A stretch of 63,777 nt of DNA, the filler included, from Stramenopiles sp. TOSAG23-6 (taxonomy: Eukaryota): assembly GCA_900128565.1 (NCBI GenBank). It is 5 parts of 5 records of this genome, joined end to end, with 100 filler letters (N's around TTAATTAATTAA, not from the genome) between each part and the next. Parts side by side here need not be neighbours in the genome. Positions count along the whole stretch, not along the records: positions 12,818 to 25,512 come from LT636193.1; positions 25,613 to 38,272 come from LT636194.1; positions 38,373 to 51,029 come from LT636195.1; 2 more parts are not named here. The stretch is one strand, 5' to 3'. Each line of letters begins with the position of its first letter. The stretch's first letter is position 1. The notes beneath the pieces were generated by a model that saw nothing but the letters and a program-made list of their open reading frames with translations, did not search any database and was not told where the DNA came from. Of the stretch, positions 15,801 to 47,800 are shown piece after piece. The position numbers and the translations under genes were made by a program.

Positions 15801-17202
15801 TTCCATGTACGTTTTAAATATTGAAAATGCATTTTTTTTTTGGTACGAAATTTTGTACCTAATCAAAAACAATAAAAAAAAAATATTCTTTACAATACAT
15901 GTACTCAACCTCGTCATCGACTTCCAGTTCCTGGTGCTACATCAAATTCATCTCAGAGATGCTGGACATATACCCCAAATGGGACTACGTATGTTTTATT
16001 TTTTTTCAATTTCGATTTTTTTTTCGTACGAAATTTTGTACCTAACGAATTTTTTTTGAAATATTTTTCCAAAATACACAAACCATACAGATGAGGCTGC
16101 CGTATTAGCAGCAGAAATGAATACCGCAGAAAGACACTTACAAAAGGCAAATGATGCAAATGCCATTGCGGAAGCTCATCGCCTCGAAGCTCATCGTTTG
16201 ACACAGTTGTGTGCTCATAATTGTGGATATCGTCAACGTGGTCAGTCACCGGAAGCTCAGCATCAAGCTGCATCACTGGCAGTAGATCAAGCTGCTGAAC
16301 ACATGTATATTTTATTTTTTTTTTCAAATTCGATTTTTTTTTCGTACGAAATTTTGTACCTAACGATTTTGTTTTGTGAAATATTTTTCCAAAAGACATG
16401 GAAATTGCACAAACTGCAGCTTTACTCGCTAAATCGCATATGGCTGCAACCGAAGCAGCCATTGGCCGATCCCCCTTACAACCATTATCTTTTCGGAATG
16501 GCAATTCTCATTTACCTACTGCTTTAGGAGTATGTACGTTTTCATATCAATTTTGAATGTAATTTTTTTTTCGTATGAAATTTTGTACCTAACGAAATTT
16601 TTTTCGAAATATTTTTTCATAATCCATGTGTTGATTCGATGAGTCCATCCGGATGCTTCGAGACGCATTCACATCAGAAGAACCCAGTTTCAATATATGG
16701 TTCTGGTGTTACGTATGAAAGTTTATCAAATCAAGCAAGCATTCCAACAACGACGGCAACATTTGGAACATTACCATCACCTCAATATTTTGATACTCAA
16801 GGTAATGCCATCGGTACTTCAAGTCAGCAACATGAGCAACGTAATGCAAGACATCAACTTTTAGAATTTCAGCACCAACAAAAACAAAAACAGAATTATG
16901 AAGAACAAACGCTGTTGCTAAAAATTCAGCAAGAACGAAATCGGCAACAGCAACAGCAACAGCAACAACAGCAACAACCACAACAACAACAACAATATGA
17001 TGGTGGGAAGACTCATCAAAAAGTATATCAGTCTGGTCAAGTTCCTCTTAATGTGAATATACCCCCGGTAGATCTGAGCTTTGATTTCAACCAATTTCCC
17101 CATCAGTTACCTATAGATGGTAGTAACTGGTCGAGGAATGCTAGAACTGGAGTAGGCACTAAATCTCTCTTTTCTACTAATCCCTCAAATGTCAGAAGGT
17201 AA
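12873..17202 (+). CDS. Low-complexity Q/S/D-rich protein of unknown function, 12 exons, 5'-partial
   Basis: Removing 11 family introns at GT..AT/AC boundaries gives one continuous frame to the stop at 17202. Contains two copies of a VSVxVP...VPPGIGPGExF domain. Confidence 0.75.
13295..13395 (+). mobile_element. Family intron GT-AT (101 nt)
   Basis: GAT|GTACG...CAATATAT|GAT; frame restored. Confidence 0.85.
13545..13653 (+). mobile_element. Family intron GT-AT (109 nt)
   Basis: Removal gives VPPGIGPGESF. Confidence 0.9.
13810..13999 (+). mobile_element. Family intron GT-AT, double unit (190 nt)
   Basis: Removal gives VPPGIGPGEVF; two tandem internal units. Confidence 0.85.
14281..14389 (+). 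mobile_element. Family intron GT-AT (109 nt)
   Basis: TCCT|GTACA...CAATATAT|GG; frame restored. Confidence 0.85.
14485..14579 (+). mobile_element. Family intron GT-AT (95 nt), GTGCG start
   Basis: TAT|GTGCG...CAATATAT|GCT. Confidence 0.85.
14948..15092 (+). mobile_element. Family intron GT-AT with duplicated 3' end (145 nt)
   Basis: Only the distal AT restores the Q-rich frame. Confidence 0.75.
15580..15688 (+). mobile_element. Degenerate family intron GT-AT (about 109 nt)
   Basis: Divergent core TTTTGTAACGAAC; ends CAATACAT; 5' boundary less certain. Confidence 0.65.
15807..15900 (+). mobile_element. Family intron GT-AT (94 nt)
   Basis: Consensus motifs; frame restored. Confidence 0.85.
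15989..16079 (+). mobile_element. Family intron GT-AC (91 nt)
   Basis: AC|GTATG...AAAATACAC|AAAC; AC duplicated. Confidence 0.85.
16305..16399 (+). mobile_element. Family intron GT-AT (95 nt)
   Basis: Removal gives AAEHMEIAQ. Confidence 0.85.
16534..16627 (+). mobile_element. Family intron GT-AT (94 nt)
   Basis: Consensus motifs; frame joins ORF 16639..17202. Confidence 0.8.
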
Positions 17203-17358
17203 TTTACACTGTTATTAAGTAAAATGACTTTATACCATAATTTCAATTTTATATTATTTTTTTTTTTTAAAAATACGTTAGGTACAAAAAACTGCTTGAA
17301 AAAGTTATACGAATTGTAATTCTAATTTTGGGTTTATTATTATGATGAATAATTTTTA

Positions 17359-18460
17359 CTAGAGTTGTTTCTGCAAATGTGCATGACTTGAACCAAAATG
17401 ATCTGGTACTTCATGGATATATTTATACAAAAAGGTATGTCCGATATATGCAACGAAACTTCCTATAAAGTACGCGACAAAAGCAACTCCACCGCCTAGA
17501 AATAAAAATTCAAACCCGGTTCGGCACGAAGATTTGGACTGAGTACTTATTGAGTCTATAATGCAAGGCGAGAGATAACTTTTCCAAGATTTGAATTCAT
17601 TTGTTTTCGGATTTTTGAGACAACTTGTAGTGACCCCAAGAAGAAAAAGAACAATTCCCGTAGAAATACAGGCGATTTTGAACATCCCATTTTCACCACA
17701 ATCAGGATCTAAGAGAGGAGCTACAGAATACATAAACAAGGGGATGAATCCAAATACAACAAAGGAGAGAAATGTGATGAATCCATCCTTCCAGGGAGAT
17801 TCATCATCTTCAGGTAGTTGCAGTTGAAGTTTTTCCAACATTAAAGTATTGTGAAAAAATATTTCGAAAAAAAAATCATTAGGTACAAAATTTCGTACGA
17901 GTACGAAAAAAAAATTAAAATTTTGAAATTGCAAACGTACAAAGTTCAAGTAGGATGTCATCGTATTTGGCAATTGTGTGAACGACAACCATAGCTTTGT
18001 CACGAGGCAACCCTTTTTCAACATATGTGTCAACCAATGACTTAATTACAACAGGGCGAGCAACTTGTAAATTTTTTTCTTCTCGACTGAACTCTGATAG
18101 TACGTGTTCCTGATGAGCAATAGAACTCAAAGCATCTCCTACACCCATACCAACGGCGTCAGCTATTATATTAGAAATTCCCAAAATAAGTACAACCTTG
18201 GGACTCAACTGACCACCAGATGCACCAGAAATAATCGCAAATGTGGTGAGAATTCCATCCACACCTCCATAGACCACACTTTTTATCAAGTCACCGTTTT
18301 CACTATGAGCTTCTTCAGAAAACATTGCATCATCATCAGCTGCTGAAGGAATTGTGTGCGAAGAAATTAATTCATCACGATCCAAAGCTTGGTAAGCTGA
18401 ACGAGCACCACTTAAATTACGCACTTTGTCCGCGGCACTAACTGGATTATGAGGAGGCAT
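17359..18460 (-). CDS. VIT1/CCC1 family vacuolar iron transporter, 2 exons
   Basis: IKSVVYGGVDGILTTFAII, NIIADAVGMGVGDALS and ESPWKDGFITFLSFVVFGFIPL motifs. Confidence 0.9.
17844..17940 (-). mobile_element. Family intron GT-TT (97 nt)
   Basis: CTTT|GTACG...CAATACTT|TAATG gives LLELLMLEKL; TT duplicated. Confidence 0.88.
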
Positions 18461-18837
18461 TTTGAGCAAAACCTAGAGGGAAGATGAGATACTATTAAGG
18501 TAACAAAAAAAATATGTCATTGACAATTTCTCGAAAAAATCCATTTTGATATTTGATTGAAGAGTCGACTTAGCAGTCAAAAAAAATGAGAAATTGAGAA
18601 ATTGAGAAATAATTGAGAAAGTAGAGTCAGCGACACGTCGTCTCGCGAGAAGAAGTCAATAGGTCCTATATCGATATAATACAGTATACTATTAACTTCT
18701 TGAAATTTAACTTCATTGCATCTACGCAGCTATATCTGCGTAAGACATTTAACATTGCTTTATTTTCTTTTCGCATATACTCACGGATAGGTCAAAACCT
18801 TCGATATTTATCTCAATTTCGAAACACTGGCATACAA

Positions 18838-20363
18838 ATGGAACGAAACATTGTTCAATCTACACAAAACTCTGAATTTGTTCTTGACCGCAGTATATTT
18901 TCCAAATCTATTCCAGTGTCTGCCTTACGCATACGTCCAGAGCAATGCAATGTTTTTACAAAGAAATTGAGGCGTATTATATTTAAACGGCGAAAAGTTC
19001 GACCGATAGTTTCGGATCCTTCTGACTCGACACACAAGCTACTTCTTTTAAGTGACACCATTGGAAACCACAATGGAAACCACAATGATGGTGATACAAA
19101 TGATGGTGATACGTCTACACTCTCGGAAGATATTTCACCTGAAATAATGGATTTTATTACAAGTCAAGGTGCTTCATTTGTTCCATATTCTATTACTATG
19201 GGCTATGAACATCTTACTGCAAGCCAAGTGTTAGCTGAAGTTCTACCAGTAGGAGTCCAGGTGCCATCATCTTTTGAGACTATAGGTCATATTGCCCACG
19301 TGAACCTTCTTGAAGAACAATTGCCATTTAAGAAAATTATTGGTGAAGTATTTTTAGAAAAGAATTCTCCTCGTATTCGAACAGTTGTAAATAAAGTTGG
19401 AACAATTCAAACGAAATTTCGGACTTTTCCAATGGAGATTTTGGCTGGTGAAGATGACACAATAGTTGAGTGCATCGAAGGTGGAGCTCGATTCAAACTT
19501 GACTATCGATCTGTATACTGGAATTCTCGGTTACAAATGGAGCATATGCGTAGAGTGGAGCTCATTGCTGGTCCTCTGATTAAGAAGAAACGCGGTAAAA
19601 ATAAAAATAAAAATTTTGAAAATAGTTCAAAAATTGAAATAAAAAAGGATGAAACGGTGAATAGAATTCTATCATCGAAACCTTTAGTCATTGCGGATAT
19701 GATGTGTGGAATTGGACCATTTGCTATACCTCTAGCAATGCGTGATTGTGTGGTACACGCGAATGACTTAAACCCAGAGTCGTATAAATGTACATTTTCA
19801 TTTCAATTTCGAATTTAGTTTTTTTTTGGTTTTCGTACGAAATTCTGTACCTAACAAATTTTACAAAAAAAAAATATTTTTTCACAATACATATCTCAAA
19901 GAGAATTGTGCCTTGAATAAAGTATCTTCGTTGATAACAACGTATAATTTAGATGCACGTGTTTTCATAAAAACATTGTTGAAACAGTCCATTACATTTG
20001 ATCATGTCATTATGAATTTACCTGCTTTATCACTGGAATTTATAGATGTCTTTTCTGGACAGGTTTGTGCTGATTGGGAGAAAATGCCAAAGTTACATTG
20101 TTATTGTTTTTCTAGTGCATCCACAGTAACCGAAAGACGCAATGATGTTATTAAGAGAGCTGAGATATCCTTAGGTCGTCCTTTAGATTCAGCAAATGTT
20201 CAAACAAAAGAGGTAAGAGATGTCGCACCTAATAAGATAATGTATGTTTTATTTTTTTTCAATTTCTAATTTATTTTTCGTACGAAATTTTGTATTGTGT
20301 GTATCATTCACACTTCCTTCTGTATCACTAGAATCTTCTAAAAAACGGATTCGTAGTATATAA
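18838..20363 (+). CDS. TRM5: tRNA (guanine-37-N1) methyltransferase, 3 exons
   Basis: PSSFETIGHIAHVNL, VYWNSRLQMEH, DMMCGIGPFAIP, ANDLNPES, HVIMNLP and VRDVAPNK..CVSF motifs. Confidence 0.93.
19790..19892 (+). mobile_element. Family intron GT-AT (103 nt)
   Basis: Removal gives NPESYKYLKENCALNKV. Confidence 0.92.
20242..20293 (+). mobile_element. 3'-truncated family intron
   Basis: GTATGTTTT...CGTACGAAATTTTGT is followed directly by exon LCVSFTLP; CCTAAC and the 3' module are missing. Confidence 0.6.
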
Positions 20364-20614
20364 TAAAACGGATTTGTAATATATACAATGGAATAAAACG
20401 GATTTGTAATATATACAATGGATTTGTTTTGTAGTGTATAAAATAAATTTCATGGATTATTTAAAAGATTTTTTTTAGATGTATAAAATAAATTTCATGG
20501 ATTATTAAAAGATTTTTTTTAGATGTTTTTATGTATTTCAACGAATTAATTTCAAGAATTTCGAAACCTCAGCGTATATATGTCTATAGATATACGTGAA
20601 GGAAAATAATCAAT

Positions 20615-20737
20615 ACTAGTCGTCAAAGTATAACCCTAACCTTACGTAGTACGTAGTATACAACTAGTCGTCAAAGTATAACCCTAACCCTAGTATACAA
20701 CTAGTCGTCAAAGTATAACCCTAACCCTAGTATACAA
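20615..20737. repeat. ~37-bp tandem repeat containing AACCCTAACCC, about 3 copies
   Basis: CTAGTCGTCAAAGTATAACCCTAACC repeated three times. Confidence 0.8.
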
Positions 20738-20769
20738 AAGGTATTCATTTCCTAATAGAATGAAATTGA

Positions 20770-21679
20770 TTATACATCTTCCCCACGCATTTTAGCTTCT
20801 TCCTGAGACTTCAATTTTTGTTCTTCAATTTTTGCTTCTTGTGCTTCTTGTGCTTTCGCTTTATTACCCATGTATTGTGTAAATGAAAGAAAAAATAATT
20901 AGGAACGAAATTTTTTTTACGAAAGAAAAAAAAAATCGAAATTCGTGAAATATTCACTTTTTGACAACATACAAAACTACCAATACACCAACACCAGCAA
21001 AACCGACCCACTGCATTCCTAAACTGAAATACATCCAACCATCACCAAACGCCTCATAAAGAGCAAGAGTAGCAACAAAAAAACCAATATAAAAAGCATA
21101 GAGACACACGAAAATTGTTATATATTGTGAAAAAATATTGTTTTTCTTTAAAGTTTTTTTGTTAGGTATGAAATTTCGTACGAAAAAACAAATTGAAAAT
21201 TTTGAAATTGAAAACGTACAATATAATTGCCCAGTCTCTTGGATCATTACCGAATAGACATGGCTTGTAACCAACTTTTTCAACAATCCAACCTGTTTTT
21301 CGCGGTACAATACCTTTTAAATCTGGTGGAAGCTGACTTACTTTATTGCCAAGTTCGTCTCTAAGTAGTTCACGCCCTAAGTCCCTCAGTATTTGGGACA
21401 TTTGACTACCTGGAAGAGCCATGTCTTGTGCAGCAGCTTCACGGAATGCTTTCCTATACAACTGTAAATTTAGGATTACAACATAAAATATGAAGATAAT
21501 TAGTCAAATTATAGATGGTACAGATATTTTCAAATGAGAACTTGTGTCTGGAAAGGTGAACTTACTCGTTGCTGGCGATATTCCTCTGTGTCCAAGAAAT
21601 TACTTTTTGCCACAGAAGGCTTCCTTGGCTTCTTTTCCTCCAATTTCACACCAGCGGTGGTATTATTAATAGCATTCAT
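20770..21679 (-). CDS. Small membrane protein with two predicted TM segments, 4 exons
   Basis: One canonical intron (21462..21565) and two family introns give a continuous frame with two hydrophobic segments. Confidence 0.7.
20870..20972 (-). mobile_element. Family intron GT-AT (103 nt)
   Basis: GTATGTTG...TTCGTTCCTAAT...CACAATACAT; 5' site somewhat ambiguous. Confidence 0.65.
21120..21219 (-). mobile_element. Family intron GT-AT (100 nt)
   Basis: Removal gives DWAIILTIFVCLY. Confidence 0.85.
21462..21565 (-). other. Canonical GT-AG intron (104 nt)
   Basis: CGA|GTAAGT...CCTAAATTTACAG|TTG; no family motifs. Confidence 0.85.
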
Positions 21680-22080: not shown

Positions 22081-25000
22081 ATGAATCAAGAAAATCTACG
22101 TCGAGTAGATAGTATGGTTGAAAGTATTTCAGTAGTTGATGCTTCTTCTTGCTCTATACCAGGCCAGCCTCCAAAACATTGCATTGAACCTGTGGATCAA
22201 TCTGCTTTAAAGTTGGCTAATGCGGAATGGAAGAAAAGCTGTAATAGTATTTTGAAGAAGAAGTCTTTAGACTTAAAAGACATGCGTATAAAATTGGCAA
22301 AAAAAATTCGGTTTCGTCGAGAATCGCGTTTATTGAAGAGACTAAAACGTGACGAAAATCTTGCTGCCACTCATGGTCGATTTCTGCGAGCAATGAGTTT
22401 GTCTTCTACTGCATCCAATTATTCATATAAAAATTCTCGTAATAGTATTTCTGGTTCTCGCAAAGGCAGACCCCGTGGGAATGTTGCTTCCGTACCAACA
22501 TCCTTACCTAATGGTCGATCATTAGAAGGAAAAGGGGTTAGTAGTATAGTCAATACATCTAGTTCATTTGAAGGTACTACACGTATGGATATCGATGGTA
22601 GTACTGCTGTAAAAGAAAAAGAAGTTTCATCTCCATCCTTCCCCACAATGAGTGATGAATATAGACCACTAGAAAGAGTTGTGAGTGATCCTAATCCGTA
22701 TAACTCATTACTCACTTCTTTACTTTTAAATAGTTTACGACAAAAACCTGTCAGCAGGCGACGTTTAAAAGCATTAGCCATCCAAGCATTACATAAGATT
22801 ATCGGAGAAAGAAAGAATTCAGGGAATAAGACTCCGAGGCCTTCCATTAAAGTTGCTCGTTTTGAATCAGCAAATTCGATGAAGGAACCTATTAAATTAG
22901 TACCAGCAACATCAATCACTCGAAGAGGACCCGTATTGACATCAATAAGTTCTCATGTAAATTGTACAAATAATGATATTAATAATAGTTCTGAAAAATC
23001 ATCTGAAAAGCAATCTTTGAACGGCTCTGATACTCTTCATGCTTCTATTTCTGAAAAATCATCTGAAAAGCAATCTTTGAACAGTTCTGTTCCTCTTCAT
23101 GCTTCTGTTTCGGAAAAATCATCTGAAAAGCAACCTTTGAATAGTTCTGAAATAGATGATTGTAATAAGCGTTACTCTAATAGCTCTAATATCTCCCGGT
23201 TACCTGGGAGACCATTAACTCCAACTCCTGAGAAGTCTCCACAAAGAATGATTGAGAAAGAACCCGATGAACTAGATTTAAATGAGATGAGTAATACTAC
23301 AGAAAAAGAATTAGCTACATCTATTGTACAACAATCAAATGATACAAACAAACACGAAACAGCAGAGACAACAGAAAAAGAATTAGCTACATCTATTGTA
23401 CAACAATCAAATGATACAAACAAAACAGAAAATATTTTAAAGCCATTTGCAGCACCGGCAAATTCCTTCAAAGTTTTGACTGCAGATCTTCCTGCTGAAG
23501 GCATTGACCTTGTGAGAAAGATTGACGTTTGGTGTGATACATTTTGTGCTATTAGTCTTATAAATACTGGTGCTGGTTTAGCAGGGTATGGTGCAGGAGG
23601 TTCACGAAATAAACGGAAATGGTCAAGATTAGACCAAATGGTTTACGAATTGACACGTGTTGGTGAAATGGAAAAATTAGAAAAGTTAGCGGGTAAAACC
23701 CAGGCGAATTCAGCATATGAATGGCTTTGGCAATATGCGGAAGAATGGAATACCCCATGGGAAGCTTTACTTATGGCAGAACGTGGTCATCTTCATCAGA
23801 TCCAACGGAAATTCGGTACACAAATTTTTAAAGCAGCTCACAAATGGGTTTGGGCAAGAGATGATTTTTGGCATCCAACTCCATATGTTCAATTAAAGGC
23901 ACAACAAGGAAATTTCAAAAGTATTTGTGGAAGGTATCACCCTGATTTAAAAGTAGATAAATCAGCGTACGCGTGGGTTTGGCAAAGAAGCTTGAGTTGG
24001 CATGCACATCTAATTCATTATCGTAGATTAGCAGGTCATCCTGATGTGCATGAATTAATTGACGATGAAATTTGTTCTTTGGATAGAAAACAAGATTGTC
24101 TTTTGGCTAATATTGATAAACATGTCGAGTCTCTTTTGCATTTGCGACGAACTCGTCAAATGTTTATGGCACGTGAAGAAGCTTTAGTTCGTGATTTATG
24201 CAAAGAATCAAAAATTGATCTCGGAATTCCAAATGAACCAATCAATGCAGGAGAACCAATTCGACTTCGTAATCTTCGATCTAAGCCACGCGGACACGTG
24301 GACCCTTTGATACACAATCCAAAGAAAAGGAAAAGATTGAGTGATGATGCAAGATCTGCTCGAGATATATCTGATTCCAATGGTCGTACTGGTCCGTTCG
24401 GTTTTCTTCCTAATCGAGGAAATTACCGTAAAACGGTTTCGATTTGTGATTATAAAATTCCAGACATTATGACAGTTACCCCTTCTGGGACAACTACAAA
24501 GACTCGAACAAGAAGTAATAGTGAAAACACATTAAATAGTTTAGATATAGATGGAGACAATACTGTTGAATCAGATTTGTGGTTAGAAATTAAATCAAAA
24601 CCTGTTCTATGGCAGGATATTAGTGCAAAATTTGAAGTTGTAAAAACGAAACGAGATGTACGTTTTCATGATTTTTTTTTTCAATTTTTTTTTTTTTTTG
24701 GTAAAAAAATTTTGTACCTAACTAAAAAAATAAAAAAATATATATTTCTTCAAACTACATAAACCTCTCGGACATCATGAAGAAGCCATTGAAGGAGATT
24801 TCGCTTTGATCGGTGCTAAAAAACCTAAACGAAAATCAGGTTCAAAGTCTAGTGATACGGATGTATGTTTTAATTTTTTTAAATTCGTAGTTTTTTTTTC
24901 ATACGAAATTTTGTACCTAACAAATTTTTTAGAAGTTTTTTTGAAATATTTTTCCAAAATACATAATGATAGAAAATTTCGTGGTCGGCGATCTTGGAAA

Positions 25001-25367
25001 AAACAAAAACATAGTGAAAGTCCGATAGATTCAATAGACGAAATTTCTGATGAAGATTCAGATTCTGGTTTGTCATATAAAGAGAAAAAAGCAAAACAGG
25101 CTGCGATTCGCAAAGTGTACGTCCCTAAATGTAGAATAATCGATATGTATGTTTTACTTTTTTTTTTTTTTTTATGAATTTTCTTTTTTTTTTTTTTTTT
25201 TATTTTTTTCGTACGGAATTTCGTACCTAACGATATTTTACATTTTTTTTTTGTTCACAATATATATTTTACTCGGCTCGCCTTGGTTAGTAAAGCATGG
25301 TGCAACTTGTTATGAAGCAGCTGTACGAAATGTAAAATCTTGGATACATGATTTACAAGACATTTAG
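22081..25367 (+). CDS. Large protein of unknown function, 4 exons
   Basis: Long ORF extended across three family introns; internal repeats (SEKSSEKQSLN x3, TTEKELATSIVQQSNDTNK x2). Confidence 0.7.
24658..24760 (+). mobile_element. Family intron GT-AT (103 nt)
   Basis: GAT|GTACG...CTACAT|AAA. Confidence 0.85.
24863..24964 (+). mobile_element. Family intron GT-AT (102 nt)
   Basis: GAT|GTATG...AAAATACAT|AAT. Confidence 0.85.
25147..25267 (+). mobile_element. Family intron GT-AT (3' end at 25265 or 25267)
   Basis: Consensus motifs; an AT run makes the end ambiguous. Confidence 0.7.
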
Positions 25368-25612: not shown

Positions 25613-25667
25613 GTACGAAATTTTGTACCTAACGATTTTTTTTTTTAAATATTTTTCCAAAATACAT
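25613..25667 (+). mobile_element. Family intron, 3' part (ends AT)
   Basis: The contig starts inside the core GTACGAAATTTTGTACCTAAC. Confidence 0.85.
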
Positions 25668-27329
25668 ATAACTACGGAAGATTCAGAGAATGCCAAGAAG
25701 GATGAAGCACGCCGTAGTGGTTATAAAGCGAAGAAAGAAGCAAAACGCAGGGAAGAAGCCAATAATGATTTGTCATGGAATTCTCTTTTTTTACGTAGTG
25801 ACACTGTCATGAATAAACTTGCGTCTCAATTAGGTGTAAAGAAATCTGACATTCTTGTATGTTTTCATCATTCATTGTCTACCTACATTTTTTTTTTTCT
25901 TAGAAAATTTTGTACCTAACGATGTTTTTTGTTTTTTTTTGTTTTTTTTTTGTTTTTTTTTGTTCTTGAATTGTATAAAAAAAATGTACCTAACGATGTT
26001 TTTTTGTTTTTGAATTGTTGTACAATATATGATCGAGAAGGTAAAAGTAGTGGTAGTATGGCAGTACATGCAGCATTAGCTGAAACGCATGTGTTAGAAC
26101 AAACAAAGGCTGCTTTAATTGAATCTGGTGTTAATCTTGATGTATTGACCCAGGCTGCTCGTGGTAATAAGTCATCACAGAAAGATGATAAAACAAATAG
26201 TGATCAAGTCAATGCGGGTGCTTCTGGGGCACAAACTCAAATGAAGCGAAGTAAAGTTGTGCTTCTAGCAAAGAATCTTCCTGATAATACAACATCTACG
26301 GAATTAAGTCGATTATTCTCAAAGTTTGGAGATATTGCCCGCTTAGTTTTTCCTCCTCCTCACGTCATTGCTTTGGTTGAGTTTGATTCATCTGCAGCAG
26401 CTAAACGAGCTTTCTCTAGTTTAGCATATAAACGATTTAAACATGCACCATTATATTTAGAATGGGCTCCACGTGGTATTTTCACAACCGCTACGAATGA
26501 GGAAACTAGAGCATTGGCTTTTGATTCAAGTGTAAAAAGATTAGATAATGAAAATGAAAAAAATACAGAAAAAAGTAAAGCAATTCACCAAGATAATGAT
26601 AATGATGAATGTGTTACACTCTTTGCAAAAAATCTAAACTTTGAAACGAATAGTGTTGGTCTTTTAGCAGCAGCCAAAAATTTAGGTGTACGTGGTATCA
26701 GGACAGCTACCGTTGCAACGAAACCAGATCCTAAGAATAAAAACGATCCAAAGAAACGAAATCTGCGCTTAAGTATGGGCTTTGGTTTTATTGAATTTAA
26801 AACTAGAGAAAAAGCAATGAATGCATTAAAGAAACATCAAGGAATGATTGTTGATGGGCATGCATTAGTCTTAAAATTATCAGATCGTAAAGGTACATTT
26901 TTACGTAATAAAAACTCACAAAATTCACAGAAACGAAAACGTGATTCAACTCAAAAGAAAACAACATCTACAAAAATATCTGTTAAAAATGTTGCATTTG
27001 AAGCTTCAAGACAAGAAATTCGTGAATTATTTGGAAGTTTTGGAACACTAAAGAATGTTCGCTTGCCACGAAAGTTTGATGGTGGTCATCGAGGTTTTGC
27101 TTTTGTTGAGTATTTAGCTCGTCAAGATGCTCGTCGAGCTTTTGAGCAATTGAGTTCAACACATTTTTATGGACGACGTCTTGTAGTTGATTGGGCTGAT
27201 GCAGCTGAAAGTATTGAAGAATTAAGAGCAAAGGCAAATCGTGATGTTAGTGCTATTACTCATTCTAGGGATAAAGTTATGAACAAAGCAATGGACTTTG
27301 GGGAAGATGACAATAAGAGTGAATTTTAG
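25668..27329 (+). CDS. RBM19: Multiple-RRM ribosome biogenesis protein (RBM19/Mrd1), 5'-partial
   Basis: SWNSLFL, AVHAALAETHV, AYKRFKHAPLYLEWAP, LSMGFGFIEF, RLPRKFDGGHRGFAFVEY and STHFYGRRLVVDWA motifs. Confidence 0.92.
25857..26030 (+). mobile_element. Family intron GT-AT with two branch cores (174 nt)
   Basis: Removal gives KSDILDREG; TGTACCTAACGATGTT occurs twice. Confidence 0.85.
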
Positions 27330-27447: not shown

Positions 27448-29138
27448 TCATAAAGTGAAGTTTTCATATTTTAAAAATTTTCTTTTTGGCCAATGTTTGA
27501 ATATTTTCTCGTGAAATTGAAATTTCACTTTTTGATATTCATTTGTATCTTTTATCTTACCATCAGTCTCATCGTACAATCGACCATGCTTTACATCATG
27601 ATATGAATTATACATCGTCTTTGATTTTTCTATTAATAATATTTTACTCTCTTTATCTTGGAAATTCTTATTTACTAATTTAATAAATTCTGTTGTACAC
27701 GAAATAGGACACTTTTTACATAATTCTATAAATCGAGCAAACATTTTTGATTTACATAAGATAGATTGGCATTGACGGGGAGGATTCTTAGTATTTTTTT
27801 TAGTTGTACCTGACTTTAGACCTGTTTTAGATAGCAAAACTTCGGTATTATTGTGACCTCGGCTCCATGATATTGAGAATCCACAAGGTACAATTTTAGG
27901 TACACTTTTAGATACAATTTTAGGTACAATTTTATCTGTTGATTCTGCTGATGTTGTTTTAGATATTGTTTTACTATTTTGTTCAATTTGATATTGAGAA
28001 AATTTAAAAGATTTTGTCGCGTGAAATAACCTTGGTACGCAATAATCATTATTGCTGTTTGTGACAATCCTACCAATGATGGCTCGAAACATAGCAGCTT
28101 CGTTCCATAGTTCAGAGACACAAATTGAAGAAAGAAAAATATTTTGACTTTGTAGCAAGTTACTTAGTAAAGCACCCTGGAGGCCAAGAACAGTCCACCG
28201 AGCTAATTTATCACATGTATTGAAAAACATATGTCAAGTTCGAAATCCGTTAGCTACGAAATTTCGTACGAAAAAAAAAATACATGTGAAATTCATTATA
28301 AAAACGTACTACACGTTAAAGAAGAACTTTGAGAACCTCTACCAGGTTTTGTTCTTAGAACACCTAATGTATGATATTGTGAACCAGGTAACATTGGATC
28401 GGGTATTTCTCCTGCTACAGGTTTTCCTCCTGTTCTGTGAAAGTCTTTTTTGTTTAATGTATTATTATTATTATTATTATTAATACCATCAGAAGTAGAC
28501 ATGTTTATGGATACAATCTTATTCAATTCAGTGAGTCGTTTTTTAGTGTTTTTTGTATGACTACTACTTGTTGGCCTTTTTTTGGTGTTTTTAGTGTCAT
28601 CCAATGGAAAGATACACGCATCGCCGCAGGGTGCTTGACTAATATACATATGGAATTTAATACCATCGCGTAGCTTAATATCATTGGAAATTGAATGCTT
28701 CTTTTTTGTATCAAATTTTGTACCTAACGAATTTCGAATTTGCCTTCTATTAGAAATATCGAAATTATTACTTTTACAACTCACAGAAGGCCTCAAAACA
28801 AATATATCAGATTCATTTTTTTGACTAAATAGCTTTTCAAGTTCATCTTCTAGAAATACAATAAAACGACGACGACAAATTACCTCTGCGTGAGAATCAT
28901 GCACCGCAACTCCGTTTGCATGCATCCCAGAAGATCCAACACACTTTGTTCCTGTTGCGAGAACAATCACTTCTAGCAAAGGATTTTGAGTACCAACATT
29001 CTTTTCTAATAAAATTGAAGCTAGCACTGACCATTCGCGTGGTCCACACTTGCCAGTTTTAGGTAAAGTATCATACTTCTGATGAGAAAGTGTTGCACAA
29101 AGGTTAGCAAATGTGGACACAGTACTTGATTCTGACAT
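27448..29138 (-). CDS. ADAT1: tRNA adenosine deaminase (ADAT1/Tad1-like; ADAR-type deaminase domain, no dsRBD seen), 2 exons
   Basis: LATGTKC, HDSHAEV, YISQAPCGDA, LRTKPGRG and TCSDKLARWTVLGLQGALL motifs. Confidence 0.88.
28215..28309 (-). mobile_element. Family intron GT-AT (95 nt)
   Basis: TGTA|GTACG...CAATACAT|GTGAT restores CSDK. Confidence 0.92.
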
Positions 29139-35977: not shown

Positions 35978-38219
35978 ATGCCTAGGCATGGACGTGGAAA
36001 AGGTTCATCTAGTCGAGGGAATCAAAAGGATAGGTCACAGAAAAGTCAAGGGACTGATGTTCATGCAAAGCAAACGAATAATGAAAAAAATGGCAAAAGA
36101 TCACTCCGCAAAAATAAAAATAATAAGGGTCATCGTAACAACAACAAGTATTCGAAACAACACCACAGTGGTAGCGGTAGGGAAAAGTTCACAGGTTACC
36201 GAAAGCATATGGAGAAATCGGATGTTGATATAGGTTTGGAAAATGGAAAATTCTATGAAGGTACAATTCGTATTAACAAAAAGAAAAGAACTGAAGCTTA
36301 TGTTTCAGTTCAAGGGATACCGTTTGATGTGTTCATTGATGGTGACACTGCTCGCAACCGTGCTTTAGAAGGTGATATTGTATGCATTGAACTCCTACCT
36401 AGATCAATATGGCAATCTCGTAATGCTAATTTTTGTAGAAATAAAAATGAAACTAAAGCGAATGAAAAATTTATAGATCCTGTGAACTGCCCTACAGTAG
36501 AACCAAAGTTTAAGATTGAAACTGATTTGGATGCCGTCAATACAAAAGACAATAATAATTTATGGCCCATGCAATACACTCAACCAACACCAGCTGAAAA
36601 TATAGAATCAACTGGAAACAATCCATTTGATCATTTAGCCTCAACAAAACTTACTGAGGATGGTGTATTTTGTAAAGAAAATAATTTTCAACCTTCAGGA
36701 CAAGTCATTGCAATTCGTGAAAAACGTCACCGCAACGATCTTCTCGGTCACTTACGCTTCTCTAATAATGATATGAATGGAGCATTACCTACACGCGTAT
36801 CGTATATTTTGTTTTCCCCTCGTGATCCTCGATACCCATTTGTAAAAATCCCACGACAGTTTCTTCCTGAAAAAGCTATTTCGGATCCACGTTCTGCTTC
36901 ACTTGATCTTTGGAGTGTTTGTCTTGATCGTGTATGGTTTCATCATGAATTTTAGATTTCAATTTTTTTTTCGTACGAAATTTCGTACCTAACGAATTTG
37001 AAATTTTTGAAATATTTTTTCACTATACATGATTGGAACGCCAAGGAAAAATCTCCAACGGGTAAAGTTAGAATTTCGATTGGCCAGGCTGGTGAAATAG
37101 CAACAGAAACAGCTGCTCTATTACGTGAGAATGGATGTGATCATGGCTCATTTCCTTCTGCTGTGTTGAATGAAATTGCTATAGAAGTTGGAGATTCATG
37201 GTCAATGTACGTTTTTCATTTGGATTTTTTACGTAATTTTTTTTTCATAGAAAATTCTGTACCTAACGATTTTTTTTTTTTACTAAAAAAAAAAAACAAA
37301 CAACAATATTTTTTCACTATACATCCCTCCTGATGAATTTCTTAATCGTCGAGATTATCGCAAGACACGGATTTTTTCAATCGATCCAGCAACAGCAAAA
37401 GATTTAGATGATGCTTTACATATCACACCTTGTAAGTTATCCGATGGATCAGATGGTTTCGAAATTGGTGTCCACATTGCTGATGTTTCACATTTTGTAA
37501 GACCCGGTACCGCACTTGATGCAGAAGCGCAGCGAAGATCTACAACTGTATATTTGAATCAGTTTTGTATACCTATGCTCCCACCTCGTTTATGTGAGCA
37601 GTTATGTTCCTTAAATCCTGGTGAAGATCGTTTAGCGTATTCTGCAGTATGGAAAATGAAAGCTGATGGTGCTTTAGATAAATCGCCGTGTTGGTTTGGT
37701 CGCACTGTCATTCATACTGCATGTAAGTTAGACTATGGCACTGCTCAATTAATAATTACTGGAGAGATTTCAGCAGATGATGTGGATACACTAGCAAAGC
37801 ATGGTGAAGGTAATACTGGTTTATATTCTACCATAGAATCATTGAATGAAGTTTGGTCTCCTGAGAGACGACCAATAGATTTGAATGTTGCTGCCGCTGC
37901 TGCAAAGGATGTAATTAATCTACATAAAGTGGCATGTATGTTTTATTTTTTTTCAAATTCGAATTCTTTTTTATACGAAATTTTGTACCTAACAAATTTT
38001 AGTTTTTTTTCTTGAAATATTTTTCCAAAATACATCTTCTCGTCGTATTCGAAGGTTTACTGCAGGTGCTTTAGCTTTGCATCAACCAAAGTTATGTTTT
38101 AAATTAGATGGAGATGGAAACCCAGTATCAGTATTTACATATCCTTTAAAGGACTCCAATAGATTAGTAGAAGAATATATGCTCTTAGCTAATTATCTTG
38201 TAGCTCAACATTTATTAAT
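35978..38219 (+). CDS. DIS3L2: DIS3-like exonuclease 2 (RNase II/RNB family), 3'-partial, at least 4 exons
   Basis: RNRALEGD, IGQAGEI, SIDPATAKDLDDAL, GVHIADVSHFV and LVEEYMLLAN motifs; no PIN domain. Confidence 0.9.
36932..37030 (+). mobile_element. Family intron GT-AT (99 nt)
   Basis: Removal gives CLDRDWNAK. Confidence 0.88.
37207..37324 (+). mobile_element. Family intron GT-AT (118 nt)
   Basis: Removal gives WSIPPDEFLNRRDYR. Confidence 0.92.
37936..38035 (+). mobile_element. Family intron GT-AT (100 nt)
   Basis: Removal gives LHKVASSRRIRRFTAGAL. Confidence 0.92.
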
Positions 38220-38272
38220 GTACATTTTCATTTCAATTTTTTGTCTAATTTTTTTTCATACGAAATTTTGTA
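38220..38272 (+). mobile_element. Family intron, 5' part
   Basis: AT|GTACATTTT...; the contig ends in the core. Confidence 0.85.
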
Positions 38273-38372
38273 NNNNNNNNNNNNNNNNNNNNNNNNNNNN
38301 NNNNNNNNNNNNNNNNTTAATTAATTAANNNNNNNNNNNNNNNNNNNNNNNNNNNNNNNNNNNNNNNNNNNN
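38273..38372. other. Artificial contig linker
   Basis: Same 100-bp structure. Confidence 0.97.
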
Positions 38373-38457
38373 AAAATTGTTAGGTACAAAATTTCGTACG
38401 AAAAAAAAAATTTCGATTTTTTTTTTTTACCGAAAAAAAAAAATAAATAAAACATTC
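38373..38457 (-). mobile_element. Family intron, 5' part, GA start
   Basis: CAT|GAATGTTTT...CGTACGAAATTTTGTACCTAAC. Confidence 0.75.
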
Positions 38458-38821: not shown

Positions 38822-38924
38822 ATTTATTTTGGAAAAATATTTCAAAAAAAAAAAAAATTGTTAGGTACAAAATTTCGTACGAAAACAAATTCGATTTTTT
38901 TGTTAAAAAAAAAATAAACCGTAC
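38822..38924 (-). mobile_element. Family intron GT-AT at the CPS/IFT122 junction (probably chimeric)
   Basis: Flanking exons belong to different genes and phases. Confidence 0.75.
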
Positions 38925-40319
38925 ACTATCCATAATTGATATTTTCTGAGGGACCTTCATTACGTGTCTCAAAAATGTTTGGAATAGAAATGCAGTATCA
39001 GGTATTTTGGAAAAATATTTCAAAAAAAAAATTTGTTAGGTACAAAATTTTCAAAAAAAAAAAAATGGAATTTGAAAAAAAATAAAGCATACAGTTGGAC
39101 CACCACAAGCTTCTGGATGAAATTGGACTGAAAAAAATGGTTTACTTTCGTGAATGATTCCTTCATTTGTCATATCATTTGCATTGATGAAAAGTGGACG
39201 CCAGTATGAAGAAAGAGTTTCTGGATCAACAGCAAAGCCGTGATTTTGCGGAGTTATATAGCAACGCCCAGTACGCATATCAATACAAGGTTGATTCATT
39301 CCACGATTTCCGTACTTCATCTTAAATGTCTTTGCGCCTGTTGCAAGAGCAAGAATTTGATTACCAAGACAAATACCAAAAATTGGAACTGGAGGTTCAA
39401 GATTGAGTGCCCATTTAATACTTGTCACTGTTGCCATTGCCATCTGTGGGTCTCCAGGTCCATTGGAAATAAAAATTCCATCGTACTTGATTCCTGCAGG
39501 ATTTTTCTCAAGGTCATAATCAAATGGTACAACAATGACCTTTACGTTACATTCATTCACAAAATAGCGCACAATATTAAACTTCATTCCACAGTCAAAG
39601 GCGATGATACTACACTTACCCTTTTCATTGTAGGTTGAAATAGTTGTGGTAGAGACACTTTTCACGAGATTTTCTGCATTTGGATCAACCAATGTAACGA
39701 TAGGATGATGAGGAAATTGAATTGAACCAAGCATTACACCGTGTTCACGGATTTTCTTCGTCAATAAGCGCGTATCAACTCCGAAAATGGCTGGTACATC
39801 ATGTCTTCGCAACCACGCACTAAGTGAAGACTTAGAATTCCAATGAGAGTGCTCGAAAGAGTAATCCATAACAACGAGACCCCTGATCTGGATTTTTTTA
39901 CTCTCAAAATGGGTAGGCATACCCAACTCATCAATATCTTCCTCGTCAGGCACACCATAGTTACCAACGAGGGGATATGTGAGAATTAGAACTTGACCCG
40001 CGTAAGAAGGATCAGTCAAAGCCTCAGGATAACCAACCATTCCTGTGTTGAATACAACTTCGCCACAAATAGATTTTTCTGCACCAAATGAAAAACCTTC
40101 AAATGATGATCCATCACTAAGAGTCAAAGAAACTGCATTACTGCCAGAGCTCCATTCGAAGGCATTCTGACCATGTGAAAGACTGCGTGTCTTTGACCTT
40201 TTACCCGATGAAATAGAAGGATCTGTATTTTCATCATTGACCTTTGACAGTTTTGTGATCTTGCGATTCAAGCTATCATCCACGCTTGTGGAAGCTTGAC
40301 GTTTCCCCAAAGTCGTCAT
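38925..40319 (-). CDS. Glutamine-dependent carbamoyl-phosphate synthetase, glutaminase (small-chain) region of a CPS II/CAD-like gene, 3'-partial
   Basis: GEVVFNTGMVGYPEALTDPSY, ISNGPGDP, GICLGNQ, QNHGFAV and SVQFHPEACGGPTDTAFLF motifs. Confidence 0.92.
39000..39092 (-). mobile_element. Family intron GT-CT (93 nt)
   Basis: ACT|GTATG...AAAATACCT|GAT restores GGPTDTAFLF; CT duplicated. Confidence 0.92.
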
Positions 40320-42191: not shown

Positions 42192-42377
42192 TTGCGATAT
42201 AACATATGTATATAGAGTAACGCTTGACTTATGAAGCTCTCCTACATTTGTTTATATTGTGAATACTTTAAGTTTTGTTTGACTCTTTGATATCTAAATA
42301 AAGAAAATTTCCTACTATTTTTTATATAATGATTAAATATATTCTCTATTCATTACCTACGAGTAAACACATATATT

Positions 42378-42740
42378 CTATATTTGGTCCTTCACTGCGA
42401 CACGGTCGAGTATAGACTCCAAATTACTATCGAGCGTTCTGTACATGGCTTTGCGTTCTCGTTCCTCCTGCACACGAAGACGCTTTCGCCAAGGTTTCTC
42501 GTAATATTTTCTTCGTTGCACTGCATTTGTCGTTTTATCCTCTTTTGCTACATTTGCCAAAGTATAGTGAGCTTTTAATATTTCACTCCGGTCAGAACCG
42601 TTTGGGTTTAAAGTGATGCGGATTCCAGCCTTACTACTCATCCAACCTCCATCTCCTGGTGAGGTAGGACCCGTGCACATGCAACGAACTACAGAACGAC
42701 TTACAATTGGGCGTAATACGAAACAACCCCTAGTCAACAT
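42378..42740 (-). CDS. MRPS21: Mitochondrial ribosomal protein S21 (bS21m)
   Basis: Arg-rich presequence and RRKYYEKPWRKR motif. Confidence 0.75.
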   Translation of the reverse strand: MLTRGCFVLRPIVSRSVVRCMCTGPTSPGDGGWMSSKAGIRITLNPNGSDRSEILKAHYTLANVAKEDKTTNAVQRRKYYEKPWRKRLRVQEERERKAMYRTLDSNLESILDRVAVKDQI

Positions 42741-43006
42741 TCTCAAATCTAATAATTAGAGAGTCTTCAAAAATTAGTAGCTACAAGATTACAACAAAGT
42801 AGTACACACGTACCACTGTTGTAAAAAAAAAAAAAAAGCAATGTAGTAGTCAAACACGTGTCGCGAATCGCGATAATAATTCTAAATTTCTGTGGCTAGG
42901 GTTAGGGTTAGTTATATATTCATTGGATCTTGGCCGCATCTTGGCCCTTGGCCACCACAACAAGTACCACTCTCTCTCGAATAACACTAATAGGTATTTT
43001 TTTGCA

Positions 43007-44551: not shown

Positions 44552-44833
44552 GTAGATTTGCTTTTTTTTTTCGTGTGTGAAACACAATTTTGTGTCATCA
44601 CAAATTTTGATTTTTCCAAGGAAAATACAAAAATAAAAAACCAATTATGGAAACTCAATATATTATATATGAAATCTTAAAAATCTCAATAAATCACACT
44701 AGAAGAACATTTTTAATATACCCATCCATTAGCAGTATGTGCAAAATTGTCCAGTTGACAATAGTATTTGAAGGCGTTAATTTTTTTTCTTGCCTATTTT
44801 CAACCACTTTTTGTTTTCATTTCCCATAAAAAT

Positions 44834-47800
44834 CTATTTATTTTCTAAAGTTGAATTGGTTGATTTCATCGATAACTTTGGAAAATCATTTGCAAGATCA
44901 GGTAAATCTAATAAAGAACAAATATCGGATTTTACAGCATTCTGTTGTTTTAGTGCATATCGAGATTGTTTTGATTTTTTTTTCTTTTTTGTTTTTCGGC
45001 GTCCTAAATTTTCAATCATCGAACGTAGGGCGAGACATCTTTGTTTATTATATTCTAATTTTTCTTTTATATCTTCAAGGGAGATACAAAGTATGTATTG
45101 TGAAAAATTATTTTTTGTAGAAAAAAATTGTTAGATATGAAATTTTCATACTACAATTTTCATAATCAAAAAAATGAATTTCATGATGAAAACGTACGTT
45201 CCCACGTCACCTAACATACAAAATGGTTCAAGAATTGATGAAAATACTTCAGATGTAATATTCATTTTGATTTGCTTTGCAAGTGTAGCATAATATTTCA
45301 CAAATTGCCAAGTTCCTCGACCTTCATTTGCGTCTTCAAATCTCTGCGAATCATTAAACAATTGTAGTATAAAATCACATGCACCAAATCGTATTTGTAT
45401 AAGAGATAAGAATGACAAAACATTTTTTTTCAAATTTTGTTTCTCTGTTTTTCTTATAGCAGAAGTTTTTGTACTCCAAGTACTTGCAGATTCATTGACT
45501 CTCCATTCTAATTGTGAAACAGAATTCTGTGTACAGATTTCATCATAAGCCTGAGATGTTCTATGTAAAGTAGTGAGAGCATGGTGAGTTACAGCAGATA
45601 GATCATTTAAATTATGTTTCAAACTACCAGTATTAGGGAGCATTATTTGAGGTTCGGGTGATACTATTTGAATTTCATCATCTGTTTTTGAATCTGTACT
45701 GGAACTATCATAACTTCTATCAACATCAATACACTCTTGGTATTCAATAGTATTAGAAGTATTGCTTGATAAAACATCATTTGTATTTTTGGCATCTTTT
45801 GCTCCTTCTGTATTACTATTTAATGATGCTCTTAGATGAAACCGTAAGATACTGCTCACAAAATCAGCAAGTCGATTCGCAAAAGGCAAAACTCCCTTTG
45901 TATTTGTCGAGTTGGAAAAGAAATCCGAGAGACCATTTAAAATATTTTTAATGTGTTCCGCAGCGACAACCTGCGTCCTTTCACGCAGCTTTGTCTGTCT
46001 CTGTATTTTTCGTTGTTCTTCTGTCCTTCGTTTCGAGAGACCAGAAACTCGCGCCCATTGGCATATAGTTCTACGAGCAGCCCGTCCATTTGATGTACCT
46101 TTGACATTGCCATCTACACAATGTAATCTATCTAAAACTTTTGTCAGGTGTTCAAGAACAACTCTTATAGTAAACAATGAAACTCCCCTTGACGAATAAT
46201 TCATAATCATGTTTGATTCTTTGGGTAATTGTTGTTCAATATCATGAGCTATACTATGTATACTATTTATTTTTGAGATCATCTTTTCCATTCTATCTTC
46301 AGATCCTGGAATTCTAGTTGTTGGCATATCAATTTCGCTGAGATCAAAAGAACAAAATCTTAACCTATCTCTATTTGTACCTCCAACAGGACTAATTCCA
46401 GAAGCTGCTTCGGCTTCAATCGCATTAAGTAGTGTCAAGCCTTCAGCATCAACTAAACCATCAAGTATTGTGAAAAAATATTTCAAGAATTTTAGATTTG
46501 TAAGGTACGAAATTTTCAATGAAAAAAAAATAAATTGAAATTTCTGATGAAAATGTACAAGAATCGGAATTATTCTTTCCCATGCAGAAATCGTTATTAA
46601 AGACCACCCATATCTTGTACTACAATCTGAACTATCACTTGAGAAACCATCCCTCGACGAGATTATGCTTTCCTTGATTCCCTTGCGCCATTCGCCACCA
46701 GCTGTCACGAAATCTAACACTTCTGCTGATATGGGCATAGGACAACTATCTGCAGCAAACATTTCATCATCTGACCTTGCCTCAGTTTTGACACGTTTTC
46801 TCCATCGACGACAGAATGAAGGTGGTGGTGGAGGATCCATCATTGTATTACTACTTTGGTTTTTCATACTATCATTTTCATTACAGTCAACTCCTTCATA
46901 TGAATAAACACCAATATTTTCTATGGAATCATTTGTTGTGTTTAAGCTATCATCTGCATCTATATTTGTAGATAATTCGTTTGACTGATTATTTTCTTTA
47001 CAATCCGTCGTCGAAATATCAATACAGTCAAATAAAGGATCAGACATTTCAAAGTGTGGTGTTACGCTTTTTCGTCTATCCACGGGGGACATTATTTCTT
47101 TAATTTGTACAAACTTTTCATCTATTTCTTTAGTTTGTACAAACTTTTCATAAGTACTATCAATATCTGAATGAGTACCATCGTCTGTAAAATCATGTTC
47201 TTTTTCATTGGTACTATTAATATCTAAATGTGTATCATCATCCGTAAAATCATGTTTTATTACTTCAACGGACCCAGACATTCTACATATCGACGATGAT
47301 TTTACAAATGTAGGACTTGATTCAATTTGTGATTGTATGCTTGTCTCTTGATCAAGTTGTAAAGAAACAGAGTTATTGCATTCTGCATCTGTATCTGAAG
47401 ATTTCGAACCTTTTATTTGTATAATCATATCATTCGTTTTTGTTTGTTTAATCATATCATTCGTTTTTGTTTTGCACCTTTCTTTGTTATCAATTCGATT
47501 CGAAGTCAATTCCTCATTTGTTTTTAATTTTTTTCGAAGGTTCTTTAATTTAGATATTATTTTCTTTTGAGCTGAATCACTCAAACCACACGCTTCATTG
47601 CCACCAAGTAATATACTAGCAAGTGCCGTCTCATAATGATACACTGCATCCTCTATATTTCCTCCCTTTTCGCTTTTTTTACCACATAAAATATGTTTTC
47701 GTGCACTACTTGCATGTCGAACTGGTGTTGGCATATTTGTTAGTAAAGACCTAGGTTGTGAACAATGTTTTGGACAATTTATCGCCAGATTTGATAGGCT

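Follow-up and report, generated by a model that had tools for sequence, protein, structure and literature searches.

Introners provide the leading account of how introns are gained in bursts, and as far as the available text of the main sources goes, the described families mostly have GY-AG boundaries (PMC11282704; 10.1101/2022.06.06.494994). In the introners of Micromonas pusilla, of Aureococcus anophagefferens and of a wider census, a target-site duplicate of 3, 4 or 8 bp supplies either the AG or the GT of these GY-AG boundaries, according to the same parts of these sources. For the tunicate Fritillaria borealis, introns derived from miniature inverted-repeat transposable elements (MITEs) are described, with AG-AC or AG-AT termini, which are preceded by an exonic TAC and in which the target duplicate forms the non-AG 3' end (Henriet et al. 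2019, via the available part of PMC11282704); these introns occupy species-specific positions (PMC11282704; PMC13326754, both in part). Here, a family of mobile, short, non-coding introns is described, an introner of a compact stramenopile genome, which occurs in a stretch of 63,777 nucleotides (referred to as the window) of Stramenopiles sp. TOSAG23-6 (NCBI GenBank assembly GCA_900128565.1). The window consists of five parts of 12.6-12.7 kb, joined by four 100-base N linkers with a stop-codon spacer, and positions are counted along its full length. The family differs from all the systems compared in three traits: an arbitrary, apparently target-derived 3' dinucleotide goes together with a branch-like motif and an invariant, canonical 5' site, the duplicate has 2 bp, and the inverted termini are minimal. 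Duplicates that complete splice sites and transposon-derived non-AG ends are already known. In literature searches and in term look-ups in the main texts of papers on marine stramenopile (MAST) or single-cell genomes and of introner surveys, neither this family nor non-AG introns in MAST lineages are found to be described.

The family shares several properties with the Micromonas and Aureococcus introners, in so far as the available parts of those reports describe them. Many introns, placed in genes at positions that are unrelated, consist of short non-autonomous repeats with target-site duplicates at their junctions; of the two splice sites, one comes with the element and one is completed by the duplicate, so that the mRNA is restored after splicing; and the copies are enriched in the genes of aquatic protists. 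Unlike in the introners described there, the duplicate of this family has 2 bp (AT, AC, TT, CT or AG) and is itself the intron terminus, such that the GY-AG pattern is not seen: the GT is invariant at the 5' end of the 24 aligned copies, and AG is present at the 3' end of one of the 29 complete copies, the other 28 being without it. The use of the target duplicate as a non-AG 3' end, which implies a spliceosome tolerant of non-AG ends, is shared with Fritillaria (PMC11282704; PMC13326754, in part); the Fritillaria introns differ in having a non-GT 5' end and clear inverted terminal repeats, whereas here GTAYGT is invariant, the termini are minimal and the host is a stramenopile. In Amoebophrya, inverted repeats of 8-20 nt pair the intron ends, direct repeats of 3-5 nt are present, the 5' ends are variable, and the introner families are strain-specific and without a transposase, as given in the available text of PMC7789003. 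Direct repeats of a few nucleotides over the exon-intron boundaries, which make the exact boundaries ambiguous, are a point of likeness (PMC7789003, in part); in the family described here, however, shared pairing of the ends is not found by RNAalifold and the GT is invariant. The non-conventional introns of euglenids have a stem that joins their ends, have no polypyrimidine tract and leave as circles, and the intermediate introns of that group mix conventional and unconventional ends (PMC11282704; PMC4770533, as far as available). The non-canonical borders with duplicate-like junction repeats resemble the present case; a T-rich tract, a branch-like motif and the lack of a conserved stem set the present family apart from them. 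U12-type introns have a flexible 3' terminal dinucleotide, and AT-AC termini are typical of them, in the accessible part of PMC13326754. This flexibility is also seen here. In minor introns, the 3' site is set by distance, the 5' consensus is RTATCCTT and the branch site is placed roughly 10-20 nt from the 3' end; here the 5' end is GTAYGTTTT and the distance from CCTAAC to the 3' end, as read off the alignment, is roughly 30 to over 60 nt.

When the window is searched by nhmmer with a profile built from its own copies (E<1e-4), 39 matches are obtained, with a best E value of 6e-32, all within 12.8-63.8 kb. From these, 28 complete copies are delimited, plus a degenerate 29th copy at 15580-15688; they are 90-190 nt long, AT-rich and T-rich, and without an open reading frame (ORF). 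In addition, six copies are incomplete, being truncated or cut by a part end, core fragments are found at two intergenic places, and a single remnant is antisense to its host gene. The pairwise identity of 24 aligned copies is 70% on average and at most 92%, along the whole length and between unrelated positions in unrelated genes. The copies start with the consensus GTAYGTTTT, being a canonical 5' splice site, followed by some 30 T-rich bases. The centre is an imperfect palindrome, GTACGAAATTTYGTAC (in its consensus form CGTACGAAATTTYGTAC), running into the branch-site-like CCTAAC, after which there are a T-rich tract (a T- or A-run) and a conserved 3' block, TTTTYCAMAATAC, whose consensus is (GAA)ATATTTTTYCAMAATAC and after which the intron has two further bases. 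In the 24-copy alignment, columns with little or no variation are found in the GT, in the palindrome together with CCTAAC, and in the 3' block, at the positions expected of splice signals. Two subfamilies are distinguished, in which the variants of the two ends co-vary, GTAYGTTTTA occurring with TCCAAAATAC and GTAYGTTTTC occurring with TTCACAATAC; descent of the copies is therefore that of entire units. Each of the 29 complete copies is within a gene and in the sense orientation, and the intron phases, counted by hand over the 26 copies with an open frame, are near uniform (9/7/10), without an excess of phase 0. The core motif has no match in the bacterial and archaeal contig collection that was searched, and the window has no Rfam match.

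The extent of the excised unit is established by reading frames and by homology. In a blind frame test, in which each copy is cut from the GT through ATAC plus two bases and the longest flanking frames are compared, the register agrees in 24 of 27 copies, the chance rate being 1/3. The three failures concern the copies at 15989, 25147 and 38924 (single coordinates refer to the 5' end of a copy). For 15989, no frame of the short exon upstream is closed by a stop, and the copy is in frame when chained with 15807; for 25147 (25147-25267, plus strand, AT before the GT and AT at the intron end), the boundary must move by 2 nt within ATATATAT, and the 3' boundary is ambiguous; and 38924 is located at a chimeric join of carbamoyl-phosphate synthetase (CPSase) and IFT122 sequence. 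The copy at 63155 is in frame. Pfam profile coordinates continue over the junctions, from 74 through the junction codon (75) to 76 for TRM5/TYW2 (19790-19892, plus strand, AT/AT, where the first pair gives the exon end before the GT and the second pair the last two intron bases), over 116 / 117 / 118 for the VIT1-family gene, and over 40..43 in the cold-shock domain of DIS3. A comparison of the TRM5 exons with Protein Data Bank (PDB) entries is too weak to place the junction, and the Pfam profile coordinates are used instead. Where the glutaminase domain of CPSase ends, the CT/CT junction is aligned without gaps to eight homologues. In the ADAT1-like deaminase gene (28215-28309, minus strand, mismatched TA/AT), only the GT...AT boundaries recreate a motif that is invariant in nine homologues. 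When both boundaries are shifted by -2, in the NN-GT...ATAC form, an in-frame stop is obtained in ADAT1, and a shift by -1 replaces an invariant serine; both alternatives are rejected. It is thus shown, at the level of frames and homologous proteins, that the segment whose predicted removal restores the gene extends from the GT to exactly two bases past ATAC. The predicted 5' cut is at a canonical GT, and the predicted 3' cut is after AT, AC, TT or CT, and after AG in one of the 29 copies. Removal at the RNA level is supported by the sense orientation of all complete copies and by the conserved blocks at splice-signal positions. These results are in agreement with the original prediction, in which the element was said to be spliced out together with one duplicate, leaving the protein unchanged.

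The two bases before the GT are the same as the last two bases of the intron in 20 of the 29 complete copies, a count that had been reported before and is reproduced when the copies are delimited anew (28 plus the degenerate copy at 15580-15688). All five non-AT intron ends match the exon flank of their own copy, as also described earlier: AC/AC at 15989 (15989-16079, plus strand, the best-scoring copy, with 105 bits), TT/TT at 17940 (17844-17940, minus strand, in the VIT1-family gene) and at 46558 (46463-46558, minus strand, 96 nt, in frame by the frame test and itself stop-free and in frame), CT/CT at 39092 (39000-39092, minus strand) and AG/AG at 63155 (63033-63155, minus strand, the only GT-AG copy, which contains Ns, in a gene with a FERM domain). 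Among the 28 copies, the upstream dinucleotides are AT (15), TT (5), CT (2), AC (2), GT (2), TA (1) and AG (1), and the terminal dinucleotides are AT (23), TT (2), AC (1), CT (1) and AG (1). Random pairing of these predicts 12.9 matches out of 28; in 200,000 permutations of the 28 copies, the probability of at least 20 matches is 5e-6, as is that of five matches out of five non-AT ends, and when the chimeric copy is left out there are 20 matches among 27 (P = 1e-5). The excess is carried entirely by the five non-AT cases. The AT/AT pairs are uninformative alone: AT is the prevailing dinucleotide both before the GT and at the intron end, and, being self-complementary, it could also be the tip of an inverted repeat. 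Comparison with chance, tabulated within the window, thus bears out the claimed 2-bp duplication as a locus-specific direct repeat of 2 nt, which exceeds the AT bias through these five cases. No locus-specific matching is found between exon positions -3 to -6 and intron positions -3 to -6, nor between intron positions +1 to +6 and exon positions +1 to +6, and a longer or a shifted duplicate is therefore rejected. A G follows the intron in 14 of 27 copies, which is better explained by the consensus of the target than by a duplicate extended to three bases.

The preference for AT targets, also part of the original prediction, is supported: AT is present before the GT in 15 of 27 copies, compared with a coding background of 0.092 (P = 1.7e-9), and the empty site, when reconstructed, reads c-A-T-g and is palindromic. 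In the youngest subfamily, the match is seen in 8/8 copies, including AC, CT and AG, and in the older subfamily in 12/19, a difference that is not significant (Fisher P = 0.068). The median score of the matched copies is 83.7 bits, that of the mismatched copies 45.6 bits (one-sided P = 0.034). Intact duplicates in the youngest copies, and matched copies nearer to the consensus, are as expected for a duplication at insertion that later decays. The copies at 13545 and 13810 (13545-13653 and 13810-13999, both plus strand and AT/AT) occupy the same position in two successive tandem protein repeats of the host gene (13400-13999) and are therefore not independent of each other; exon and intron have been duplicated together.

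It is probable, on these grounds, that the family is an introner that inserts with duplication of a 2-bp target site, preferably (C)AT(G), and that is spliced out together with the downstream duplicate. The element proper would be GTAY...ATAC, which would insert as DNA by a staggered cut of 2 bp at a preferred (C)AT(G) site, the dinucleotide becoming duplicated. The spliceosome would then cut 5' at the GT and 3' after the downstream duplicate, bringing the mRNA back to the sequence before the insertion, and the position of the 3' site would depend on the 3' block of the element, from which it is a constant 2 nt away, not on an AG. Afterwards, the terminal dinucleotide would drift or be selected toward AT, mainly by gaining an A at -2, and such a shift would explain why the intron end is AT in every mismatched copy. 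On a more tentative reading, an element that carries all its own signals could land on almost any dinucleotide and would be removed scarlessly across the target duplicate, which would make it an introner that no longer requires a protosplice site.

Several observations weigh against this interpretation. The repeat is not present in nine of the 29 copies, all of which have an AT intron end and a non-AT exon end; without the chimeric copy, this asymmetry is 8:0 (two-sided P = 0.008), and neutral decay should strike both sides. The mismatched copies are CT/AT at 14281-14389 (plus strand), GT/AT at 15580-15688 (plus strand; the degenerate copy, with the 5' sequence GTAGAT and a 5' boundary set by the reading frame), TT/AT at 20870-20972 and at 21120-21219 (both minus strand), TT/AT at 25857-26030 (plus strand; 174 nt with expanded T-rich repeats, in the gene of an RRM protein, placed by frame and Pfam), the ADAT1 copy, GT/AT at 36932-37030 (plus strand; in the DIS3-like exonuclease gene, placed by Pfam and by comparison with a gene model), GT/AT at 38822-38924 (minus strand; the chimeric join) and AC/AT at 45093-45197 (minus strand); 14281, 20972, 21219 and 45197 are placed by the frame test. 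Seven of these nine are a single base away from AT, in six cases at -2. The exon end TA of ADAT1 is within conserved Cys-Ser codons, where an origin as AT would create a stop, so that this copy must have inserted without a duplicate, have been converted by a different copy or have changed twice at its 3' end. The exon end of ADAT1 cannot derive from AT, and the favoured origin of the mismatches is therefore that intron ends have changed to AT, either because an A at -2 was selected for or because other copies acted as donors in conversion. Chimeric assembly is rejected as their cause, as only 38924 is chimeric and the other eight copies keep the frame (chance 1/3 each). In addition, the duplication is supported by only five informative (non-AT) loci, and splicing is deduced from reading frames and homology only. 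The sequence is from a fragmented assembly that is prone to chimeras, and at least one copy contains such a join.

The other points on this side concern the origin as a DNA transposon. The inverted termini are short (4-9 bp) and are without a shared fold according to RNAalifold, and no transposase domain is found in any of the ORFs scanned in the window. Intact intergenic or antisense copies are not seen among the complete copies; for some 11% of parts 2-5 being intergenic, a rough hand estimate, about eight intergenic copies are expected and two fragments are seen (Poisson P = 0.01). An imperfect terminal inverted repeat had been proposed before, and GTA...TAC is always present; the repeat as it was quoted, however, includes the AT duplicate, without which the termini have GTA...TAC and a T/A run in common. 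It is most extended in the GTATG/CCAAAATAC subfamily, where 8/9 positions pair with one indel (as read by eye), and the ends pair in three of eight single folds. No consensus structure of the copies is predicted by RNAalifold (0 pairs), and in only one of eight single folds is the energy better than that of shuffled sequences at z < -2; structures that pair the ends are thus rejected. The statement that no transposase is visible holds for the Pfam domains of all ORFs scanned. As to the MITE-like nature of the element, it is small (90-190 nt), non-coding and bounded by a 2-nt repeat; its inverted termini are short and imperfect, without a consensus fold, and the genic, sense placement of all complete copies does not agree with this class, of which insertions in both orientations and outside genes are expected. 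The earlier interpretation is therefore partly supported: its core is right, and the name MITE is not proven. The non-AG 3' ends are a more unusual consequence than the flank match, and were underplayed in it.

An RNA-mediated spread would account for part of these observations, and is considered unlikely. In such a scheme, the excised GT...ATACAT reverse-splices into transcripts at CAT/G-like sites and is copied back into the genome, the AT 3' end being part of the intron and the AT before the GT reflecting a target preference, not a duplicate. It would explain why all 29 complete copies are genic and sense with no intact intergenic or antisense copy, why the inverted termini are weak and a transposase is not found, and it predicts the class of nine copies whose intron, but not the exon before it, ends in AT, including that of ADAT1; the same reading has been applied to fungal introner-like elements (Gozashti 2022 preprint, 10.1101/2022.06.06.494994, in its available part). 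It does not predict, however, that non-AT intron ends are equal to their own exon end (5/5, P ~5e-6), nor the complete matching of the youngest subfamily (8/8, with AC, CT and AG), and it does not agree with the core fragments between genes (17268-17289 and 49606-49635) and the antisense remnant in ADAT1.

Both routes could also have been used, with duplication-type insertion for some copies or subfamilies and duplicate-free spread, or gene conversion of the 3' end, for others. Here the coexistence of the two classes, with 12/19 matches in the older and 8/8 in the young subfamily, is accounted for, conversion from the AT-ended majority would yield exactly the one-sided mismatches that are observed, and segmental duplication has demonstrably copied one intron (13545/13810). 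This combination is quite improbable, being less parsimonious; no conversion tract is demonstrated, and the two subfamilies do not differ significantly by Fisher's test (P = 0.068). Removal at the DNA level, as of the internal eliminated sequences of ciliates, which are bounded by 2-bp repeats of which one copy is retained, is very improbable. A 2-nt direct repeat with one copy kept and ends that ignore the AG rule would fit such a process; the strict sense orientation (29/29), the spliceosomal-type signals (invariant GT, conserved GTAYGT and CCTAAC) and a boundary repeat that is biased to AT, not TA, do not fit it, and nuclear dimorphism is not known in stramenopiles. That these are old ordinary introns, alike by shared splice signals and AT-rich composition and with a flank match caused by a protosplice-site effect as in AG/GT...AG, is scarcely credible: consensus on both sides explains the AT/AT pairs (12.9/28 expected), but not the whole-length similarity of up to 92%, the subfamily structure, the nhmmer E values down to 6e-32, the near uniform phases (9/7/10 in 26 copies) or the locus-specific non-AT matches.

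Between the branch-like motif and the 45th nucleotide of the following exon, an in-frame, stop-free AG is absent in 15 of 27 copies, and the first AG is compatible with the frame in only 8/27, about the chance rate. GT-AG splicing to the nearest AG is rejected, being incompatible with the frame in most copies and in conflict with the homologues. Tentatively, the lineage may splice a whole class of introns without a 3' AG, cutting two bases past TTTTYCAMAATAC at any dinucleotide. If true, its 3' splice-site recognition (by U2AF-like factors or in the active site of the second step) would be modified, independently of the tunicate case. It would show that a protist spliceosome tolerates non-AG ends, as in Fritillaria, and the family would offer a compact system for studying 3' splice-site choice without an AG.

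Such families would be invisible to gene prediction that is bound to GT-AG, or be distorted by it. Two public gene models in which GT-AG is forced, P0122 and P0392, lose or gain residues at the four compared junctions (28309, 36932, 37207 and 37936). In P0122, the ADAT1 intron at 28309 is extended by 12 nt, and five conserved residues are lost that are part of the conserved motif around the catalytic-site cysteine of the adenosine deaminase. In P0392, the intron at 36932 is extended by 15 nt; at 37207 (37207-37324, plus strand, AT/AT, DIS3-like gene, placed by Pfam and gene-model comparison) a different GT and AG are chosen and the start of the RNB domain is lost; and at 37936 (37936-38035, plus strand, AT/AT, also in the DIS3-like gene and placed by gene-model comparison) an internal, in-frame AG is chosen, which adds 11 residues. 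If the density of some 35 copies per 51 kb holds genome-wide, a large share of the proteome predictions of this lineage would be affected. The introner census pipelines start from annotated introns (10.1101/2022.06.06.494994, in its available part), and therefore wrong boundaries would be inherited for families like this one.

From the open DIS3-like exon sequence, P0392 also cuts a 78-nt segment, GTAATG...ACAG (36421-36498), and a segment of 33 nt (~37800-37835), both with approximate coordinates; these are possibly canonical introns outside the family or artefacts of prediction. At 28674-28784 (minus strand), a copy remnant is present that is antisense to the ADAT1-like gene. It corresponds to an in-frame insertion of 33-37 residues that is absent from 9/9 homologues and has candidate GT...AG bounds; as a GT-AG intron, it has 99 nt in the public model and 111 nt (GTGAGT...AAG) by our own reading. 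It may be a reversed copy that has turned into a canonical intron.

The host is a stramenopile. The best protein matches of its N-myristoyltransferase (NMT) gene are stramenopile proteins; of the sources with a name, those ranking highest carry the labels MAST-3 and MAST-4, with 55-74% identity. The exon sequences of P0122 and P0392 are identical to the window, and the source label of P0392 is a eukprot handle of MAST-3 type; this label and the partial NMT match P0003 suggest an affinity to MAST-3. Outside the first part, the GC content is about 35%. The first part (1-12717) is a giant hairpin, with arms (1-3344 and 9374-12717) that are 100% complementary and separated by 6029 nt. It has a GC content of about 43%, a strong GC skew and ORFs of 2007 and 1400 codons without a Pfam match, and contains no copy of the intron family. 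It looks like a chimera of amplification or assembly, and might come from a different genome.

Five of the ten part ends (12818, 25613, 38272, 38373 and 63777) are inside family copies, several at the central palindrome, because assemblies break in repeats, as expected. The 3' parts of copies that are cut by a contig start, both ending in AT, are at 12818-12872 and 25613-25667 (plus strand), and another 3' part, also ending in AT, is cut by the end of the window (63718-63777, minus strand). The 5' parts are at 38220-38272 (plus strand, cut by a contig end, with AT before the GT) and at 38373-38457 (minus strand, cut by a contig start, starting with GAATGT and preceded by AT). In the latter copy, GAATGT replaces GTATGT, being a GA donor or a sequencing error. 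The 5' half of a copy at 20242-20294 (plus strand, AT before the GT) is truncated at the same central palindrome where several part ends fall. The core fragments are placed between two convergent genes (17268-17289, minus strand) and in another intergenic region (49606-49635, plus strand); these two and the six incomplete copies are profile matches. At the out-of-frame copy 38822-38924, the contig joins the exons of the CPSase small chain (upstream) to an exon of the IFT122 beta-propeller (downstream), whereas the homologues continue with the start of the CPSase large chain; the join is a repeat-mediated chimera.

The other complete copies are AT/AT. On the plus strand, frame tests place those at 13295-13395 (frame restored), 14485-14579 (5' sequence GTGCG), 15807-15900, 16534-16627, 24658-24760, 24863-24964 and 55604-55693, the last between open frames of 1364 and 1757 codons, and the alignment places that at 16305-16399, which is 92% identical to 15989. 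Two copies are internally rearranged: 13810-13999, placed by the frame test, is a two-unit composite of 190 nt, and 14948-15092 (plus strand, AT/AT) has a tandem duplication of 35 nt at its 3' end, including a few exon bases, with the frame kept by the distal end only. The NMT, EGF-repeat and FAD-oxidoreductase genes have no family copies. The copy density is thus uneven: a single copy is present in the 9.4-kb EF-hand/WW/ankyrin gene (51563-60928), and about 11 copies are found in one gene of 4.4 kb (12818-17199), which is rich in Gln codons and has a product without an assigned function.

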